From Helicobacteraceae bacterium (GTDB lineage: Bacteria; Campylobacterota; Campylobacteria; Campylobacterales; SZUA-545), in assembly GCA_031276985.1 (NCBI GenBank), contig JAISMA010000192.1:1-37845 (forward strand): a stretch of DNA of 37,845 bases, written 5' to 3'. Shown here piece by piece: positions 8,564 through 15,978 of the stretch (positions are counted from its first letter, which is position 1; each line of letters starts with the position of its first letter). The notes beneath the pieces are model-generated. The model was not told the DNA's origin. It saw only the letters and a list, made by a program, of their open reading frames with translations, and ran no database searches. A program made the translations under genes and the position numbers.

Positions 8564-10165
8564 TTATTGTTTAGGCGATTTCTCCTGCCAATATAGCGTC
8601 GGATACTTATAATCGCCAAACGCGCCCCAAACCCAAGGATTGGCGTCATTACCGCCAAAGCGCCAGCCAAGCCCGCCGTCGCTTTCGGATTTCAAATAAG
8701 TCGCGTTTAGCTCGAAATTAGCTTGCGTAGTACTATCGCCTTCTACGCCGTTAGCGCCCAAAGCGCTTACGTTCATTGAATCAAGCGCGAAATTGTTAAA
8801 TATACGCTCGGCGGGAGCTAAAGCGTCTTTATGTCCGATTATGCGATTTGCGTCGCCCGTCGCCGTAATTTTTGCGTTGATAGCGGCGTTGTTTGAAATT
8901 TTAATCCAATGTCCCGAAGCGCCGCCGACAATACCGCCAACTTTATAATCGCCGCCGATATTGCCTTCGGAATAACTATTTGCTATCAAAAGAAACCCGT
9001 TTCCAAAATCTCCTACGGCAAAGCCCGCGATTCCGCCCGTGAAATTACCTTCGCCGATAACGTTGCCTATCGAATAGCTATTATTGATTTCGCTGTTATC
9101 GTCGCCATGGTTATAAGCGTATCCCGCTATGCCGCCAACATGATTAACGCCCTTTATTCTCGCCGCGGAATATACGTTTTTCACTCTGCCTTCCAGAAAA
9201 TATCCGACGATTCCGCCCGTATTATTGCCGCCAATAATTTCGCCTTTGGAATAGCTGTCGTTTATATCGCCGTTTTCAACTCGTCCCGCGATCCCGCCCG
9301 CATAGTCGCCGCCTTTTACGTTGCCTTCAAATCCGCTAAGGCTTATTTTGCCGTCGTTAACTCCCGCGATTCCGCCTGTATGATCGCTACCGCTTACGTC
9401 GCCTTTGAATATAGCGCCGCTAATTACGCCGTTGTTGTTTCCCGCGATTCCGCCCGTATTAGAAACGCCGCTTATAGCGCCCTCGAAGCTAACGTTTTCT
9501 ATTAAGCCGTCGTTGATCGCGGCGATCGCTCCGCTATAGTAGCTAGAGCCGTTTATTTCTTTGCCAATCGCCGTTTTTACCGCGAGGTTTTTTACCGCGC
9601 CGTAGTTTCCAATCGTTTTGAATAATCCCACATGCGAATCGCCCTCGCCGTCAATCCATAACTCCGTTATAGCGTATCCGTTTCCGCTTAACGTTCCCAT
9701 AAACTTTTTTGCCGAGTCGTCGCATAACGAATCCCATTTGCTTTTCAGCGCAATATCGTTTAGCACAATATATTTATTTAGCGATCCGCAACTAGCGTTA
9801 ACATCTTTTAGATCGCTTTCGGTTCTTATTTCTGTTACGTTAGCGTCGGCGTAGAAATTTGTATCGCCTTGTAGCCAATATTCGCTCGTCTTTGAAATGG
9901 GCGTAACTTCGCCGCCTTTGTACCAGTTGTCCACTCCGTATTTCGCGGAATAAACGCTAAGGTTTATCGCCGATCGATCGCGGACAATATCTTTTTCCAG
10001 CAAAGAAAGATTGGTATCGTAAAAGGCGATTTCCGCGTTTGAACCGCTTGAATCCCCGCCGCCGCCGTAGCAACCGAATAAGCCAAGCGCGACAAACGCC
10101 GAAGCGAAAAGTTTAAGCCAGCCAAAACGCTTTAGCGCGTAAAAGCGCAATCGGGTCGCGGACAT
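8564..10165 (-). CDS. surface lipoprotein with GLUG-motif repeats
   Basis: Signal peptide with lipobox LFGC and a Gly/Ser linker. At least 8 tandem ~20-aa repeats are built around TGGIAG/VGGIAG (GLUG motif, as in IgA-protease-like adhesins). Confidence 0.75.
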   Translation of the reverse strand: MSATRLRFYALKRFGWLKLFASAFVALGLFGCYGGGGDSSGSNAEIAFYDTNLSLLEKDIVRDRSAINLSVYSAKYGVDNWYKGGEVTPISKTSEYWLQGDTNFYADANVTEIRTESDLKDVNASCGSLNKYIVLNDIALKSKWDSLCDDSAKKFMGTLSGNGYAITELWIDGEGDSHVGLFKTIGNYGAVKNLAVKTAIGKEINGSSYYSGAIAAINDGLIENVSFEGAISGVSNTGGIAGNNNGVISGAIFKGDVSGSDHTGGIAGVNDGKISLSGFEGNVKGGDYAGGIAGRVENGDINDSYSKGEIIGGNNTGGIVGYFLEGRVKNVYSAARIKGVNHVGGIAGYAYNHGDDNSEINNSYSIGNVIGEGNFTGGIAGFAVGDFGNGFLLIANSYSEGNIGGDYKVGGIVGGASGHWIKISNNAAINAKITATGDANRIIGHKDALAPAERIFNNFALDSMNVSALGANGVEGDSTTQANFELNATYLKSESDGGLGWRFGGNDANPWVWGAFGDYKYPTLYWQEKSPKQ

Positions 10166-10194
10166 AACGTCTCCTTTGAGCGTGGTTTGCGTTG

Positions 10195-10200
10195 ATTATA
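10195..10200 (-). promoter_or_regulatory. putative -10 box (TATAAT) for the GLUG lipoprotein gene
   Basis: Minus strand reads TTGCGCTATAAT-N17-AAAGGAG-N5-ATG. Confidence 0.3.
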
Positions 10201-10262
10201 GCGCAATTGTCGTTAGATGAAGATTGGTCGCAAAAGATCGCGGCGCTTTGTCGTTGAGATAC

Positions 10263-10318
10263 CTTTTTGGATGCGCCCCCCCGCGCTCTAGCTCTGCTTT
10301 GCAAGGCAGAGCGCGGAG
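10263..10318. repeat. Y module of the composite intergenic repeat, copy 1
   Basis: Near-identical to 11636-11690. Contains the palindrome CTCTGC-tttgcaag-GCAGAG nested in GCGCTCT...AGAGCGC. A degenerate X-like copy sits at 10196-10262. Confidence 0.7.
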
Positions 10319-10331
10319 CGACAAGAAGCGT

Positions 10332-10422
10332 GATCGCGCCCCCGCGAAGGCGCGCGATACGCCGATCCAGTAGCCGTAGCCAATCGATCGGCGCAACCGC
10401 TTTTTAAGAGCCGCGTTTTACC
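10332..10422. repeat. X module of the composite intergenic repeat, copy 1
   Basis: ~90 bp: GATCGCGCCCGCGAAGGCGCGC..CCAATCGG-N14-CCGATCGGCG..GTTTTACC. Four copies occur in the window. Its end contains the stop codon of the RNase H-like gene. Confidence 0.75.
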
Positions 10423-10810
10423 TTTTGCTCCGCCTCTCCGCCGCCTTTCTAGCAATATCGAGGCAACTCTCATGCATATCCGATTCGTCGCCGTCGCCTA
10501 TTCTTCTTGCCTTGACTGTGCGCTCTTTGCCGTTTGCCTTTTTCGCCGCGTCAAGTTGATCCAAAAGGTCTTCGTTTTTCTCTGGCTTTGTAATATCGCC
10601 ATTGATGCCTTTTTGGATATAGATGTTGTTGCTAATCACCTCGATTTCGCAAGATGCGGTCAGAACTTTCAGCGCCTCTATGACGGCGGTTAGCTCCATT
10701 TTGTGGTTGTCTGTCGTTTCAACCGGACCGCCGCTAATTAACGCGACCGCGCTCCATCCGCCCGGTATGTTCTTGTTTCCCAAACCCGCAGGAAAAACAC
10801 TGATTTTCAC
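10418..10810 (-). CDS. miniature RNase H-like protein, copy B (predicted catalytically inactive)
   Basis: GTG start with AAGGAG 6 nt upstream. Alignable to RNase HI (PGGW, NHKMEL, YIQKGI, CLDIARKAA), but the first Asp position is Ala (VFPAGL versus IFTDGS) and the third carboxylate is Asn (ISNN versus STDS). Confidence 0.7.
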   Translation of the reverse strand: MKISVFPAGLGNKNIPGGWSAVALISGGPVETTDNHKMELTAVIEALKVLTASCEIEVISNNIYIQKGINGDITKPEKNEDLLDQLDAAKKANGKERTVKARRIGDGDESDMHESCLDIARKAAERRSKR

Positions 10811-10863
10811 TTTGACTCCTTTTGTAGTTTTGCCAAAGCGATCGACGCTAGATTTTTCTTTGC

Positions 10864-11156
10864 ATCGCTTCGCAATGTTTGAGCAAGATTTAACTTGCCG
10901 ACTTTTTTGACATTTCGTTTAGCGCCGCGCCGCAACAGTTTGCTTTTTGCAGTTTTTGCGGCGTAAATCGCGGATTTTATGGAGGAGCGGGCATAAGAGC
11001 TTTTCCTTGCGCTTCGGTCAATCCTAGTTTCACGCCCGTTCCCTCTTGATTCAAAAAGTTAGCGATCGTAGCGCAAGCATTCTTAAACATTTCTTAAATA
11101 CGCGAAAATTATTTTGACGCTTGCCGCGAGGCTCTCTTTCGCCCGCGACGGAATTT
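10864..11156 (-). other. conserved non-coding module, copy B (candidate structured leader or ncRNA)
   Basis: No ORF of 60 aa or more. Colinear with 14284-14430 plus 14597-14751. Conserved 8-bp stem CGCCGCAA-N20-TTGCGGCG and GCAAG-N6-CTTGC hairpin. Confidence 0.4.
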
Positions 11157-11559
11157 TTAGATTGAGATTAGTTGCAAAGGATTTATGGGCAAACCGTCTT
11201 TGGTAACTTCAAAAACAAGCTCGTCGCTTACTCGCCCGATTGATTCGCGTTCTTTAAGCGATCGCGCCACTTTGATATTGGGCGAAATGCTGTCGAGATT
11301 GCGATAGATCGTGTGAATGTTGCCCTGATGTTCAACAATCACCACTTTGCCCAACGCTTTGATATTGTCGGCGAAAACCACTTTGCCGGGCAGCACGTTT
11401 CGGACAAGCGCGTCGCTTGAGCTTGCCCTGAGCGTTACGGAGTCGTTGTGTATTTTGATGTTGTAAACGGGATCAGTGTATGGACCAAACTCTTTCACGA
11501 GTTTTATCGGCGGGCTATCCAGCGGCGCTTTGACCTTTTTGCCGTCGTAAGCGCCCGCG
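11157..11559 (-). pseudogene. duplicated 3' fragment of envC (LytM domain, 134 codons plus stop)
   Basis: 396 of 403 nt identical to 14752-15154, with identical encoded protein. The N-terminal two thirds of the gene are missing. The 5' end is fused to an X repeat, and only a TTG without an RBS is available as a start. Confidence 0.8.
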
Positions 11560-11635
11560 AAGGCGCGCAATACGCCAATCGGTTAGCCGTAGCCATCCGA
11601 TCGGCGCAACCGCTTTTCAAGAGCCGCGTTTTACC
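11551..11635. repeat. X module, copy 2
   Basis: Matches 13121-13205 almost base for base. Its first 9 nt (GCGCCCGCG) coincide with the envC duplication breakpoint. Confidence 0.75.
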
Positions 11636-11690
11636 TTTTTTGGATGCGCCCCACGCGCTCTAGCTCTGCTTTGCAAGGCAGAGCGCGGAA
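11636..11690. repeat. Y module, copy 2
   Basis: Matches 10263-10318. Confidence 0.7.
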
Positions 11691-11719
11691 CGAACGGGTG
11701 GGCTAACGCCAAACGTTTC

Positions 11720-13096
11720 CTACTGATCTTTTACGATGCGAAGTCTGCGGTCGCCATAGTCGCCTTCCTCGCGCCAAGTCGCGTTTTTGCCGCGTCCGAC
11801 AAAATACCCGCAGTAACCTTTCTTTGGCTGATTCGCCGGATCAACCTGATCTTTTGCGGAATAAGCGCCGTAGCAATCGCCTGCCAACTGCTTTTCGTAG
11901 ACGAAGGAGAGCCCGTATTGATTGGTGTCGCCACGCTTGTATTTCTCTTCGCCAGCTTTATAGTTATCCCCCCAAAAGAATTTTGTCGTCGTACCTGCGC
12001 GCATCGCGTAGTCTAATTCAGCTTCGGTAGGCAGGCGGTATTTGGTTGTGTTTTCTTTTTTATTTAGCGCCGCAATAAACTTTTGCGCTGTTTCAAACCA
12101 AAAGCTGTCGACTTCCTCGTTTTCGCCTATTCCCCTCCCATACGCTTCGCCCGTAACGTCATACCACATTCCGCCGGTAATTTTAAGGTCTTTGGCGATG
12201 TAAAACGGCTTGGTTAGCGTTACTTTATGTTGCGGTATTTCGTTTTCATTGCATTGGCGTTTCATCTGTCCCAAAGCGACCGCTCTCGCGTTTGCGGGAT
12301 CGTCGTATGGATCGGTGCACCCCATTTGGAAGGAGCCTGGCGGAATCAAAACAAACTCCATGCCGATTGAGTTTTTGAATGTGGGTAGATTCTGAACCTC
12401 GACCAGCGGTTTTTTCAGCTCTTCGGCAAGTTTACGCTCCGCTTCCGCCTTTGCTTCCGCTTCTTTGCGTTTTACTTCGGCAAGTTTACGCTCCGCTTCC
12501 GCCTTTGCTTCAGGGGACAGTGCGCATCTGGCCGATTCCATTCCATTCGACGCCCAGTCCTTTTCTGTTTTCATAAGAGATATCTTCCCTTTTTCGCAGT
12601 GGAACGCGACGCCGCCAACGACAAGCTGTTTTTCCCCAAAAAGCGCTTCCAGCTCGCTCTTTTTCGCTCCGTATAAGTAGTTATTTGCTGGTAGCGACTC
12701 CGCATACGGAAACGGATACAGCAAATCGTAGCTCTGCAAAACTCCGGCCACTATGTGAAATACGTGGGCGGAGGACGAATCAACCTCCACCGTAACGTCC
12801 TTTTTGCCCGTAACGGTGTAGTTGAAATACACGAGAAAAGTACCGTCTTGCTGCTTTAGGCGATCGGTTATCTGCGCTTTGATCTCGAAAACAGCCATTA
12901 TAGCCTCCACCCAATCTTTCTCGCGACTATCTGTATATTGAGCAAATCTATATTGAACAAAGCTCTCCAACAAACGTTTCTCGTAGTTCTGCCGCACAAA
13001 ATCCTCGACTACCTTTTCGTCGGGCTTTTCGGCGCAACCGCTAAAGGCGATCATCGCAATAAGCGCGATCATAGTCGCGTACTTTCTTGTTTTCAT
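11720..13096 (-). CDS. lipoprotein with a C-terminal FGE-sulfatase (SUMF1/C-type-lectin-fold) domain
   Basis: Signal peptide with lipobox FSGC and an AKAEAERKLAE coiled-coil repeat. Also GMEFVLIPPGSFQMG, EIPQHKVTLTKPFY and YRLPTEAELDYAMRAGTTT, which are typical of PF03781-type domains. Confidence 0.8.
   Translation of the reverse strand: MKTRKYATMIALIAMIAFSGCAEKPDEKVVEDFVRQNYEKRLLESFVQYRFAQYTDSREKDWVEAIMAVFEIKAQITDRLKQQDGTFLVYFNYTVTGKKDVTVEVDSSSAHVFHIVAGVLQSYDLLYPFPYAESLPANNYLYGAKKSELEALFGEKQLVVGGVAFHCEKGKISLMKTEKDWASNGMESARCALSPEAKAEAERKLAEVKRKEAEAKAEAERKLAEELKKPLVEVQNLPTFKNSIGMEFVLIPPGSFQMGCTDPYDDPANARAVALGQMKRQCNENEIPQHKVTLTKPFYIAKDLKITGGMWYDVTGEAYGRGIGENEEVDSFWFETAQKFIAALNKKENTTKYRLPTEAELDYAMRAGTTTKFFWGDNYKAGEEKYKRGDTNQYGLSFVYEKQLAGDCYGAYSAKDQVDPANQPKKGYCGYFVGRGKNATWREEGDYGDRRLRIVKDQ
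12421..12511. repeat. in-frame 54-bp tandem duplication inside the FGE-domain lipoprotein gene
   Basis: cttcggcaagtttacgctccgcttccgcctttgcttc occurs at 12421 and again at 12475. It encodes the repeated (A)KAEAERKLAE. Confidence 0.7.
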
Positions 13097-13116
13097 TGTT
13101 TGACCTTTCTGTTTGT

Positions 13117-13205
13117 GATCGCGCCCGCGAAGGCGCGCAATACGCCAATCGGTTAGCCGTAGCCATTTGATTGGCGCAACCGCTTTTCGAGAGCCGCGTT
13201 TTACA
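13117..13205. repeat. X module, copy 3
   Basis: Lies immediately upstream (on the minus strand) of the RBS and ATG of the FGE-domain lipoprotein gene. Confidence 0.75.
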
Positions 13206-13280
13206 TTTTTCGCCGCCTCTCTGCCGCCTTTCTAGCAATATCGAGGCGACGCTTATGCATATCCGCTTCGTCGCCGTCGC

Positions 13281-13727
13281 CTATTCCTCTACGCTTTTTA
13301 CCGTTTGCTTTTTCGCCTCGTCAGTCCGATCCAAAAGGTCTTTGTTTTTCACGCGCTCTATAGCGTCATTGTTTTGGATATAGGCGTAGATTTGCCACAC
13401 AAAATCATCAGCGTCATTGAAGCCGTTTTGGATATAGGCGTAGATTTGCCACACAAAATCATCGACTACCTTTTGCTTTTTCGCCTCGTCAGTCCGATCC
13501 AAAAGGTCTTTGTTTTTCACGCGCTCTATAGCGTCATTGACGCCGTTTTGGATATAGGCGTAGATTTGCCGCACAAAATCATCAGCGTCATTGACGCCGT
13601 TTTGGATATAGGCGTAGATTTGCCGCTGATAGTCCTCGACCGTCTTTTTATCAGGCTCTGCGGCGTAACCGCTAATGGCAATCGACGCAATAAGCGCGAT
13701 CATAGTCGCGTACTTTCTTGTTTTCAT
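13281..13727 (-). CDS. chimeric secreted repeat protein (signal peptide fused to amplified RNase H-derived segments)
   Basis: Start taken at MKTRKYATMIALIA (13727), which has the same RBS and 5' region as the gene at 13096. The body is (DDFVRQIYAYIQNGVNDA)x4 interleaved with IERVKNKDLLDRTDEAKKQ x2, similar to IYIQKGINGD...KNEDLLDQLDAAKK of RNase H-like copy B. Confidence 0.5.
   Translation of the reverse strand: MKTRKYATMIALIASIAISGYAAEPDKKTVEDYQRQIYAYIQNGVNDADDFVRQIYAYIQNGVNDAIERVKNKDLLDRTDEAKKQKVVDDFVWQIYAYIQNGFNDADDFVWQIYAYIQNNDAIERVKNKDLLDRTDEAKKQTVKSVEE
13308..13643. repeat. nested tandem repeats (168-bp unit x2, each containing two ~54-bp sub-units)
   Basis: tcagtccgatccaaaaggtctttgtttttcacgcgctctatagcgtcatt starts at 13321 and again at 13489. 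ggatataggcgtagatttgcc occurs four times. Confidence 0.8.
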
Positions 13728-13747
13728 TGTTTGACCTTTCTGTTTGC

Positions 13748-13811
13748 GATCGCGCCGCGAAGGCGCGTAGTACACCGATCGGTTAGCCGTAGCCATTCGA
13801 TCGGCGCAACG
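13748..13811. repeat. X module, copy 4 (truncated)
   Basis: The first ~64 nt of X lie between the stop of RNase H-like copy A and the RBS of the chimeric ORF. Confidence 0.65.
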
Positions 13812-13813
13812 GG

Positions 13814-14242
13814 TTATCCCTTGTTCTTGAGCTTTTCAGCGACCTCTTCGGCGATCTTTTTGGCAATCTCTCGCGCGATCTTGTCGCATTGTTTAAGCTC
13901 CTCAATGGAATTTCTTTTCAGCCATTTCGCCGTTACCTTGTGCCGTTTGGCGACGGCGAGATACGCATCCCACAAATAGGGTTTTTCGCTGTCTTTTACC
14001 CCGTTATTGATCCCATTTACAACGATTTCGTTGTCTAAAGTTAGCTCTATCGAGCTAGGCTCTTTCAACAAAAGAAGCGCCGCTACAGCGGGCGCAAACT
14101 CCATTTCATAACTGGTAGCGTATGTAGCGCCGCCGCTTAATACTTGTTCCGCGCCGCCCTCGCTTCGCACGATCGCGCACCAACCGCCCGCGCCCGGATT
14201 AGGCACAGCGCTTCCGTCGGTAAAGATTTTAACTTGTCCCAT
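13814..14242 (-). CDS. miniature RNase H-like protein, copy A (DEDD carboxylates retained)
   Basis: Start taken at MGQVKIFTDGS (14242, AAGGA RBS). IFTDGS, YEMEF, TLDNE and QCDKIARE align with D10/E48/D70/D134 of E. coli RNase HI. The basic protrusion is shortened and the His124 position is not His. Confidence 0.8.
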   Translation of the reverse strand: MGQVKIFTDGSAVPNPGAGGWCAIVRSEGGAEQVLSGGATYATSYEMEFAPAVAALLLLKEPSSIELTLDNEIVVNGINNGVKDSEKPYLWDAYLAVAKRHKVTAKWLKRNSIEELKQCDKIAREIAKKIAEEVAEKLKNKG

Positions 14243-14485
14243 TTTTTGTTCCTTTCGATTTAATGACCGCCAAGCAATCAATGATCGCTTCGCAATGTTT
14301 GAGCAAGATTTAACTTGCTAGTTTTTAACGTTTCGCTTAGCGCCGCGCCGCAACAGTTTGCTTTTTGCAGTTTTTGCGGCGTAAATTGCGAATTTTATGG
14401 AGGAGCGGGCATAGGAGCTTCTCCTTGCGCGTTATGGCGGGTTGCGCTTGAAACGCTAAAACTATGAAAATTTAATCTATTGGCT

Positions 14486-14504
14486 GGGGGGGGGGGGGGG
14501 GGGG
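14486..14504. repeat. homopolymeric G19 tract (C19 on the transcribed minus strand)
   Basis: Counted directly: 19 consecutive G inside the copy-A-specific insert. Confidence 0.9.
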
Positions 14505-14649
14505 TGAAAGGCGTTTGAGCGCGTTTGGCTCGATCAACGAATACAAATTGTGCGGCAATACGGATTTTGCGAAAAGATTATTGGCTAACCATATCCGATT
14601 GGTTAATCCTGATTTCACGCCCATCCCCTATTGATTCATAAAGTTATCT

Positions 14650-14655
14650 ATTATA
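14650..14655 (-). promoter_or_regulatory. putative -10 box (TATAAT) downstream of envC, heading the non-coding module and RNase H-like copy A
   Basis: Minus strand reads GCTTGCGCTATAAT. The same TTGCGCTATAAT context occurs at 10195-10206. Copy B has TACGAT at the equivalent position. Confidence 0.3.
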
Positions 14656-14751
14656 GCGCAAGCATTCTTAAACGTTTCTTAAATACGCGAAAATTATTTG
14701 ACGCTTGCCGCCATTCTCGCCGCGAGGCTCTCTTTCGCCCGCGACGGAATT

Positions 14752-15978
14752 TTAGATTGAGATTAGTTGCAAAGGATTTATGGGCAAACCGTCTTTGGTA
14801 ACTTCAAAAACAAGCTCGTCGCTTACTCGCCCGATTGATTCGCGTTCTTTGAGCGATCGCGCCACTTTAATATTGGGCGAAATACTGTCGAGATTGCGAT
14901 AGATTGTGTGAATGTTGCCCTGATGTTCAACAATCACCACTTTGCCCAACGCTTTGATATTGTCGGCAAAAACCACTTTGCCGGGCAGCACGTTTCGGAC
15001 AAGCGCGTCGCTTGAGCTTGCCCTGAGCGTTACGGAGTCGTTGTGTATTTTGATGTTGTAAACGGGATCCGTGTATGGTCCAAACTCTTTCACGAGTTTT
15101 ATCGGCGGGCTATCCAGCGGCGCTTTGACCTTTTTGCCGTCGTAAGCGCCCGCGCCCGCGCCCTGATACGAAGCGCCGTAGTGTTTAACGGCGATTTTCG
15201 CGCCCGGTAGCGTATCTTGCGCCGTAATCCGCGATTGTTTCATATCGTCGACCGTTTTTTGGCGCACAATGTTTAGATCGGCTAATAACTGCCGTTCTCG
15301 ATTTTTTTGATCGATTAGTTTGTTAAGCTCGGCGAGATAGCCGTTTTTGCGTTTGTTTAGCGTTTCGATTAGTTTCGTTTGATCGCTTCTAAGCGCGCGT
15401 TGTCTCGCGTCGGCTTTAGCGAGAGCGTCAAGGTTGTTTTGCAGTTCGTCTATGCGGTTTTGCGCTTTTTTAATCTGCGCGATCTTATCGGCGTAGTTTA
15501 ATTTTAGTCGCGCCGTGTCTTTTTGCACGCGATCTCGCATTCTAAAAAATATCTCGATTTTCACCATATCCGCATCGCTTTGCGCCCCGCTTTTTTCCAG
15601 CACCAAACTTTGCGCGGCGTGATTAGCCAGCAGTTTAACAAGTCTTTGCTCGATTGCGTCTCGCTCCGATACAAGCACGTCTTTTTGCTTTTGCAAAGCG
15701 CTAAATTCGCCGCGCTCGCTTGAAACTTTTTGCGTTAGCGCTTTGATCTCTTTCTCGCCGACAAGCAACGCTTTTTCAATATCGGCGATCAGCGCGTTGG
15801 CGTTTGTAATCTCTTTGGATAGCGCGTCGACTTTGGTTTGAAGCGCGCCTTCGTCGCTTTGGCTTTTTTCAAGACGGTTTTGCGCCGCTTTGATCTCCGC
15901 TTCGATCTCGCCAAGGCTTTTGGCTTCGATCGCAACCGCTACAAGCGCTAAAATCGATAAAAACTTGAACAAGTTCAT
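14752..15978 (-). CDS. envC: EnvC-like murein hydrolase activator (coiled coil plus degenerate M23/LytM domain)
   Basis: Signal peptide, ~250-aa coiled coil and a C-terminal LytM fold. The usual HxH motif is replaced (ELVFEV). It lies immediately downstream of ftsEX. Confidence 0.8.
   Translation of the reverse strand: MNLFKFLSILALVAVAIEAKSLGEIEAEIKAAQNRLEKSQSDEGALQTKVDALSKEITNANALIADIEKALLVGEKEIKALTQKVSSERGEFSALQKQKDVLVSERDAIEQRLVKLLANHAAQSLVLEKSGAQSDADMVKIEIFFRMRDRVQKDTARLKLNYADKIAQIKKAQNRIDELQNNLDALAKADARQRALRSDQTKLIETLNKRKNGYLAELNKLIDQKNRERQLLADLNIVRQKTVDDMKQSRITAQDTLPGAKIAVKHYGASYQGAGAGAYDGKKVKAPLDSPPIKLVKEFGPYTDPVYNIKIHNDSVTLRASSSDALVRNVLPGKVVFADNIKALGKVVIVEHQGNIHTIYRNLDSISPNIKVARSLKERESIGRVSDELVFEVTKDGLPINPLQLISI

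Follow-up and report, generated by a model that had tools for sequence, protein, structure and literature searches.

The 37,845-nucleotide (nt) metagenomic contig JAISMA010000192.1 of a Helicobacteraceae bacterium (GCA_031276985.1; the whole stretch is hereafter the window) encodes two highly diverged paralogues of ribonuclease HI (RNase HI), copy A and copy B, between envC and a gene for a GLUG-motif protein. Copy B appears to be an old non-catalytic RNase HI derivative whose open reading frame (ORF) and fold purifying selection has preserved, rather than fresh debris, and the 4.6-kb region that carries both copies (10166-14751, from envC to the GLUG gene) is best described as a lineage-specific rearranged islet of a Helicobacteraceae-like chromosome; we hold this explanation, taken as a whole, with moderate confidence. 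Copy A is probably an active, divergent, low-affinity accessory RNase HI. What seems to be new is a small RNase HI-derived family that would have lost its catalytic carboxylates long ago, with an intact gene kept by selection and linked to a gene for a surface lipoprotein. Both ORFs lie where an initial annotation of this DNA had placed them:

10418-10810, minus strand: copy B, predicted catalytically dead RNase HI derivative (B-type) of 130 amino acids (aa); D10A, D70N and D134L; β2-β3 hairpin and protrusion shortened
13814-14242, minus strand: copy A, divergent RNase HI paralogue (A-type) of 142 aa; ATG start; DEDD carboxylates kept, H124N, protrusion about 13 aa shorter

The two RNase HI paralogues and the B-type family

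Placement by hidden Markov models (HMMs) and by AlphaFold2 (AF2) models searched with Foldseek, as the initial annotation had proposed, assigned both copies to the RNase HI fold, with E. coli RNase HI as the top structural match. Copy A matches the Pfam RNase_H family (PF00075, gathering threshold 25.8 bits) over nearly the whole model (E = 5e-12, 46.6 bits), and among solved structures E. coli RNase HI is its closest relative (E = 3e-17); its predicted structure, with a predicted local distance difference test score (pLDDT) of 93, retrieves E. coli RNase HI chains as top matches (E = 1e-15, template modelling (TM) score 0.8). Copy B, which starts with GTG behind an AAGGAG Shine-Dalgarno sequence, is also above the Pfam gathering threshold, although the match is confined to residues 28-80 (E = 1.5e-7, 32.1 bits). 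The NCBIfam RNase HI model aligns its residues 16-127, and its predicted structure (pLDDT 75) again finds E. coli RNase HI first (E = 7e-8, TM about 0.73). The two copies are 26% identical to each other.

Neither copy is the canonical rnhA, by position or by score, as the initial annotation had suspected. The equivalog model of RNase HI (NF001236) has a cut-off of 160 bits, against which copy A scores 86.6 and copy B 48.2 bits, whereas a canonical Campylobacterota relative (P0006) scores 209.4. The canonical relatives P0003 and P0006 are encoded upstream of rnc and aroC (rnhA-rnc-aroC); neither rnc nor aroC is present in the window, where copies A and B sit between envC and the GLUG gene. Three further homologues discussed below, P0020, P0002 and P0005, score 59.9, 106.5 and 138.2 bits, respectively.

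Alignment of copy A bore out what had been read from its sequence: D10, E48, D70 and D134 are all retained, Asn replaces His at position 124, and about 13 residues of the basic protrusion are gone between I78 and L103. Its nearest relative, P0002 (146 aa, from a short metagenomic contig), is 53-58% identical and has the same unusual motifs TDN, YEME and RNS..EL..CD, the last including Asn at position 124. Unlike copy A, P0002 has a full-length protrusion, which makes the deletion recent and copy A's own. The two genes diverge with a ratio of nonsynonymous to synonymous substitution rates (dN/dS) of about 0.25 (Z = 3.0). The type 1 RNases H of Halobacterium NRC-1 and Sulfolobus tokodaii, which have neither the protrusion nor the catalytic His, retain activity, albeit weak or atypical (PMC9719913, PMC1950709), and this makes activity of copy A plausible. 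It would cut the RNA in RNA:DNA hybrids with a weaker grip, owing to the missing basic protrusion, and with slower turnover, owing to Asn in place of His124. On the contig of P0002 (L015, 670-900) the next gene, with overlapping stop and start codons, encodes a predicted membrane protein of 76 aa, a context unlike that of copy A.

Copy B presents a different active site. In register with the four carboxylates it has Ala, Glu, Asn and Leu, and Gly stands at position 124. The Ala at D10 and the Asn at D70 had already been recognized; to these is added Leu at position 134 (CLDIAR versus CDELAR), the Asp being found one residue further on, so that only E48 is kept in register. Judged by these substitutions, the canonical four-carboxylate mechanism would be closed to copy B.

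A word-indexed search with copy B returned only copy B itself. By contrast, an exhaustive HMMER search of 1.84 billion representative sequences retrieved P0020, a protein of 127 aa that matches over its full length with 51% identity (E = 3.5e-24). The next matches were ordinary RNase H domains with E-values of 1e-11 or worse, a gap that a profile search confirmed, and P0020 was the sole relative of copy B among the 1.84e9 representatives and 5.8e9 clusters. Copy B is thus not without homologues, a lack of which the initial annotation had counted as part of a refutation. The two proteins have in common the FPAG motif (D10A), the CL.IAR motif (D134L), the hairpin deletion and a short protrusion, and in both the core helix (ELTAVIEALK), the ORF and the fold persist; at position 70, P0020 retains Asp where copy B has Asn. 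Since D10A and D134L are common to both, the catalytic site was presumably already broken in their common ancestor, with further drift in each lineage. Comparison of the two genes gave a dN/dS of 0.33 (Z = 2.9), a rough value, as discussed below. For comparison, EnvC, with 0.09-0.15, is under stronger constraint than the B-type genes, and the neighbouring lipoprotein gene, with 0.24-0.31, is under a similar one. Taken together, intact full-length ORFs at 51% identity, common inactivating substitutions and this dN/dS suggest that the dead state is old and that the ORF was retained afterwards, in keeping with the initial designation of copy B as a pseudo-enzyme.

The contig of P0020 (L020) belongs to the metagenome-assembled genome (MAG) Kf353_bin5 (GCA_031273735.1), which also contributed one of the envC loci compared below (L001). 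On this contig (2485-4211) the stop codon of P0020 overlaps, in the tetranucleotide ATGA, the start of a gene for a 448-aa lipoprotein with an FGE-sulfatase domain. In the window a homologous gene is present:

11720-13096, minus strand: FGE458, lipoprotein of 458 aa with a C-terminal FGE-sulfatase domain, homologous to the gene after P0020

The two lipoproteins are 41-47% identical over their full length. The L020 pair adjoins neuB and heptosyl/glycosyltransferase genes, a surface-polysaccharide neighbourhood, and not envC. As the pair occupies different loci, the unit of a B-type gene and an FGE lipoprotein gene seems to have been kept in two genomes and to have moved. The downstream FGE-sulfatase lipoprotein gene would then be the ancestral partner of the B-type genes. 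Neither a metagenome scan with an alignment of the FGE proteins nor a profile search with the B-type proteins found further modules of this kind. The Ala/Glu/Lys-rich linker of FGE458 is encoded with an exact 37-nt direct repeat (12421-12457 and 12475-12511, spacing 54 nt), a sign of repeat-driven change.

The rearranged islet downstream of envC

The window is chromosomal and carries ordinary housekeeping genes (gatB, glyS, atpB, ftsE/ftsX-envC, carA, purA, a cus-type efflux system, trpC and metG). Among envC loci of the genome collection, the nearest belong to MAGs labelled Helicobacteraceae or Campylobacterota, the closest four with EnvC identities of 74-80%. A termite-gut origin may be hinted at by the isolate names. 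An RNase H-like or FGE-type gene downstream of envC was found in none of the 13 related envC loci, and in one of these relatives (L003) the GLUG orthologue follows envC directly, after a gap of 113 nt. These two observations mark 10166-14751 as an islet specific to this lineage. Its borders, intergenic regions and repeats are as follows; the part with copy B is called unit 1 and the part with copy A unit 2.

8564-10165, minus strand: GLUG-motif protein gene; adjoins envC directly in L003 and thereby marks 10166-14751 as inserted
14752-15978, minus strand: envC-like M23 peptidase gene, intact, downstream of ftsE/ftsX; the duplicated fragment derives from its 3' end
11157-11574, minus strand: duplicated envC 3' end (M23 peptidase fragment), fused to a D2 element at a 9-nt microhomology, CGCGGGCGC
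10811-11156, minus strand: unit-1 intergenic region, upstream of copy B; its identity to unit 2 breaks off at 10863/14283
14243-14751, minus strand: intergenic region of unit 2, upstream of copy A; homologue of 10811-11156 with an extra stretch of about 170 nt that contains a poly-C tract
10338-10427, minus strand: D2, two-hairpin repeat, after copy B
13751-13840, minus strand: D2, two-hairpin repeat, after copy A
13121-13210, minus strand: D2, two-hairpin repeat, after remnant C and upstream of FGE458
11551-11640, minus strand: D2, two-hairpin repeat, at the junction of the duplication, with D9 on one side and the envC fragment on the other
about 13207-13559, minus strand: copy C (remnant C), frameshifted and internally duplicated B-type remnant; its 3' end (13207-13314) is in one frame, and 13290-13373 and 13470-13559 are in the frame of ORF171
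13281-13796, minus strand: ORF171, chimeric ORF; FGE458-derived signal peptide followed by a 174-nt tandem repeat of the B-type middle segment

The 3' end of envC and the following intergenic region are duplicated (11016-11574 versus 14601-15170), with 93% identity over 572 nt and individual blocks of 88-100%. The identity between units 1 and 2 ends sharply at 10863/14283, some 50 nt ahead of the start codons. The claim that flanks more than 90% identical surround the two RNase H-like genes therefore holds upstream only; downstream, the shared D2 element is just 64-89% identical. The 137-aa ORF at 11157-11574, which starts inside D2 and would pass for a small peptidase gene in an annotation, is a duplication scar. 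Within the extra stretch of about 170 nt that unit 1 lacks, and about 240 nt upstream of copy A, there is a poly-C tract of 19 residues (14486-14504; C on the minus strand, G on the plus strand). Tracts of this type cause phase variation in Campylobacter and Helicobacter.

Copies A and B had been taken to occupy equivalent positions in the two units, and superficially they do, but the true duplicate of copy B in unit 2 is another sequence. Using copy B as a tblastn query, we recovered its residues 91-129 at 13311-13207 (72% identity, E = 7e-11) together with two matches to its residues 64-91 (13556-13476 and 13382-13300), which lie in a frame different from that of the 3' end. The corresponding nucleotide match (10330-10622 versus 13115-13383) is 80.5% identical by blastn, and the B-type HMM recognizes 13207-13314 with an independent E-value of 1.7e-8. 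This remnant C lies downstream of copy A and directly upstream of FGE458, that is, in the position of the ancestral partner. By these alignments remnant C, not copy A, is the counterpart of copy B in unit 2, which removes the paradox of near-identical flanks around genes that can barely be aligned. The overlapping ORF171 is probably a by-product of rearrangement and not a normal gene: its first 47 or so residues are copied from the signal peptide encoded at the 5' end of FGE458 (nt identity about 80%), with the lipobox Cys changed to Tyr, and a B-type middle segment makes up the remainder as a 174-nt tandem repeat with 1.9 copies and a 94% match. The conserved intergenic stretch 10847-10990 (equivalent to about 14265-14405) weakly resembles the C-terminal third of the B-type proteins (tblastn E = 0.001 with an internal stop; HMM independent E-value 0.0025). 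As a fourth, older RNase H remnant it was rejected, the similarity being too weak to accept and possibly due to chance.

These comparisons can be arranged into a scenario. The ancestral order would have been envC, intergenic region, copy A, B-type gene, FGE458 and GLUG gene. A template-switching segmental duplication with microhomology junctions would have set a duplicate of the envC 3' end and intergenic region ahead of a copy of the B-type gene. The original B-type gene beside the lipoprotein gene would then have decayed to remnant C and ORF171, while the new copy, copy B, stayed intact. Copies A and B would thus be old paralogues that only seem to occupy equivalent slots.

The window is a single contig with no other copy in the databases, its repeats, 93-98% identical over 300-570 nt, are of a kind that classically gives rise to misjoins, and the tandem units might have been produced when an assembler joined two strain variants head to tail, one with copy A and the lipoprotein gene, the other with copy B. 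We consider this rather improbable. The microhomologies of 9 nt between D2 and the envC fragment and of 8 nt (AAAAGGTA) between the D9 hairpin region and the D2 at the junction fall well below the length of assembler k-mers and are characteristic of biological illegitimate recombination, and it is their shortness that argues against a misjoin. Remnant C and the internal tandem repeat, moreover, testify to a real local history of duplication.

The D2 element, of 70-90 nt, has four copies, all within the islet: one after every RNase H-like 3' end and one at the junction. It was found neither in the 20 loci searched nor in the metagenome collection. Folding prediction gives D2 two hairpins, and a single compensatory pair occurs across its copies, which is too little for D2 to be called an RNA element. 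A search of the islet against Rfam gave nothing meaningful, and D2 matches no Rfam family. Candidate roles for D2 are that of a terminator-like element, a processing site or a recombination-prone repeat.

A structured repeat after each RNase H-like gene, together with an islet missing from relatives, a B-type/FGE pair at different loci in two genomes and a poly-C tract upstream of copy A, might recall a mobile or conflict system, and the initial annotation had indeed called the two genes cassette-associated. The RNase H-like genes would then belong to a defence or anti-defence system, a phage remnant, an integron-like array that recombines at D2, or a diversity-generating retroelement (DGR) targeting the FGE lipoprotein; the FGE-sulfatase (C-type lectin-like) domain is the usual fold of DGR targets. 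We regard a system of this kind as very improbable. The 37.8-kb window encodes no integrase, transposase or reverse transcriptase, and the neighbours are housekeeping genes. A DGR with the FGE lipoprotein as variable protein was rejected on the absence of a reverse transcriptase from the window and of any template-like repeat of the FGE 3' end from the window or L020. An integron or mobile cassette was set aside, as no tyrosine recombinase is encoded in the window and the D2 joins are microhomologies and not a fixed, site-specific core, D2 not having been scored with an attC model. A search of PADLOC-DB 2.0 gave no match for copies A and B, P0020, P0002, FGE458, the GLUG protein or ORF171, which speaks against a defence system. 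For a phage origin, the only PHROG match was to a generic RNase H family, and two scans of viral contigs yielded no relatives. Finally, D2 is confined to the islet. The suggested association with cassettes was thus not borne out.

Retention or decay of the B-type genes

If copy B and remnant C were simply decaying RNase HI duplicates under relaxed selection in a host-associated genome, copy B would be a functionless pseudogene that happens to have no stop codon, and copy A the sole working RNase HI, relocated from the rnhA-rnc-aroC context. Loss of three of the four carboxylates in copy B, the visibly broken state of remnant C, the abundance of junk-like chimeras in the islet and the tiny size of the B-type family are all in line with decay. 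So is P0005 (MDR1911562.1; L014, 8001-8411), a protein labelled 'ribonuclease HI' in a Helicobacteraceae MAG, in which Tyr occupies position 70 and Arg position 134, most of the basic protrusion is gone, and the gene follows rpsT-prfA instead of adjoining rnc. The occurrence of P0005 in a related MAG, probably the one that encodes P0020 (MDR1911092.1), as their neighbouring accessions indicate, points to RNase HI catalysis being lost generally in the group. Another annotated 'ribonuclease HI' without two of its carboxylates in a related genome is itself a modest new observation, and the substitutions hint at a lineage-wide loosening of RNase HI catalysis; taken with the retained B-type family and its lipoprotein link, they hint that this Helicobacteraceae group is repurposing or abandoning it. 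Against decay of copy B stand the intact, full-length state of copy B and P0020 at 51% identity with common inactivating substitutions and constrained divergence, the strong Shine-Dalgarno sequence of copy B, and the synteny with the FGE lipoprotein gene, kept at another genomic location. On balance we judge the decay of both sequences unlikely, though not negligibly so.

Several points weigh against an old, retained B-type family and the history proposed for the islet. The dN/dS values are rough, dS being near saturation (1.2-1.5), and they average both lineages, so that copy B itself could recently have escaped selection. The pairing with the lipoprotein gene may be dispensable or coincidental, as only two B-type members are known and the copy beside the lipoprotein gene in the window is broken. 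Copy A could be the sole RNase HI of the source genome. In a neighbour-joining tree (50 bootstrap replicates), P0005, the A-type and the B-type proteins group with 96% support as sister to canonical Campylobacterota RNase HI, but this clustering may reflect long-branch attraction. The order of the rearrangement events, in turn, is a reconstruction.

If the B-type proteins have been retained, as we favour, they would act by binding and not by cutting, the ligand being a nucleic acid or a protein. Given the lost basic protrusion, hybrid binding by copy B would, if anything, be weaker. A more specific proposal is that the B-type proteins are natural dead RNase H 'readers' of RNA:DNA hybrids or of structured nucleic acid such as D2, controlling the expression or variation of the adjacent lipoprotein gene, with copy A as the 'eraser'. 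This is speculative and highly improbable, although, if true, it would be a bacterial use of the RNase HI fold in regulation that has so far gone unrecognized. Should the B-type proteins not bind hybrids, the locus would be a clean, small case in which segmental duplication and decay mimic a 'cassette' structure.

Comparison with known RNases H

Compared with bacterial RNase HI (rnhA of the E. coli type; NF001236, PF00075), both copies have the same fold and clear homology, and copy A also has the four carboxylates. Both differ from it in falling far under the equivalog cut-off, in lacking most of the protrusion and His124, and in lying outside rnhA-rnc-aroC; copy B differs further in the loss of D10, D70 and D134. 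With the Halobacterium NRC-1 and S. tokodaii enzymes copy A has in common the absence of protrusion and His and the retention of DEDD, but it derives closely from the Campylobacterota/E. coli type and not from the archaeal group.

For a housekeeping rnhA, duplication had been considered unexpected. However, 16% of bacterial species have more than one RNase HI gene (PMC1950709), and the small B. subtilis proteins YpdQ and YpeP ('Group A' of Kochiwa et al. 2007), which lack the protrusion and have doubtful or absent RNase H activity, coexist with other RNases H (PMC1950709, PMC5224475). Bacteria are thus already known to have additional RNase HI genes, including some whose activity is doubtful, and paralogues as such come as no surprise. 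YpdQ and YpeP show by precedent that apparently non-functional RNase HI paralogues can be retained. They nevertheless form a separate lineage; in the B-type proteins it is the carboxylates themselves that are missing, and these proteins are tied to an FGE-sulfatase lipoprotein gene. In the exhaustive and profile searches, the B-type proteins showed no closer homology to YpdQ and YpeP than to RNase HI in general.

Engineered, catalytically dead RNase H serves as a probe for RNA:DNA hybrids. Copy B naturally has a substitution of D10 by a non-acidic residue, of the kind that abolishes cleavage with the fold intact; unlike the engineered protein, it lacks the protrusion and has a shorter β2-β3 hairpin, which may reduce or remove the putative binding. 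Were B-type proteins to bind hybrids and leave them uncut, they would be the natural equivalents of these probes. Overall, the locus represents a known phenomenon in an unusual local form and not a new kind of system.

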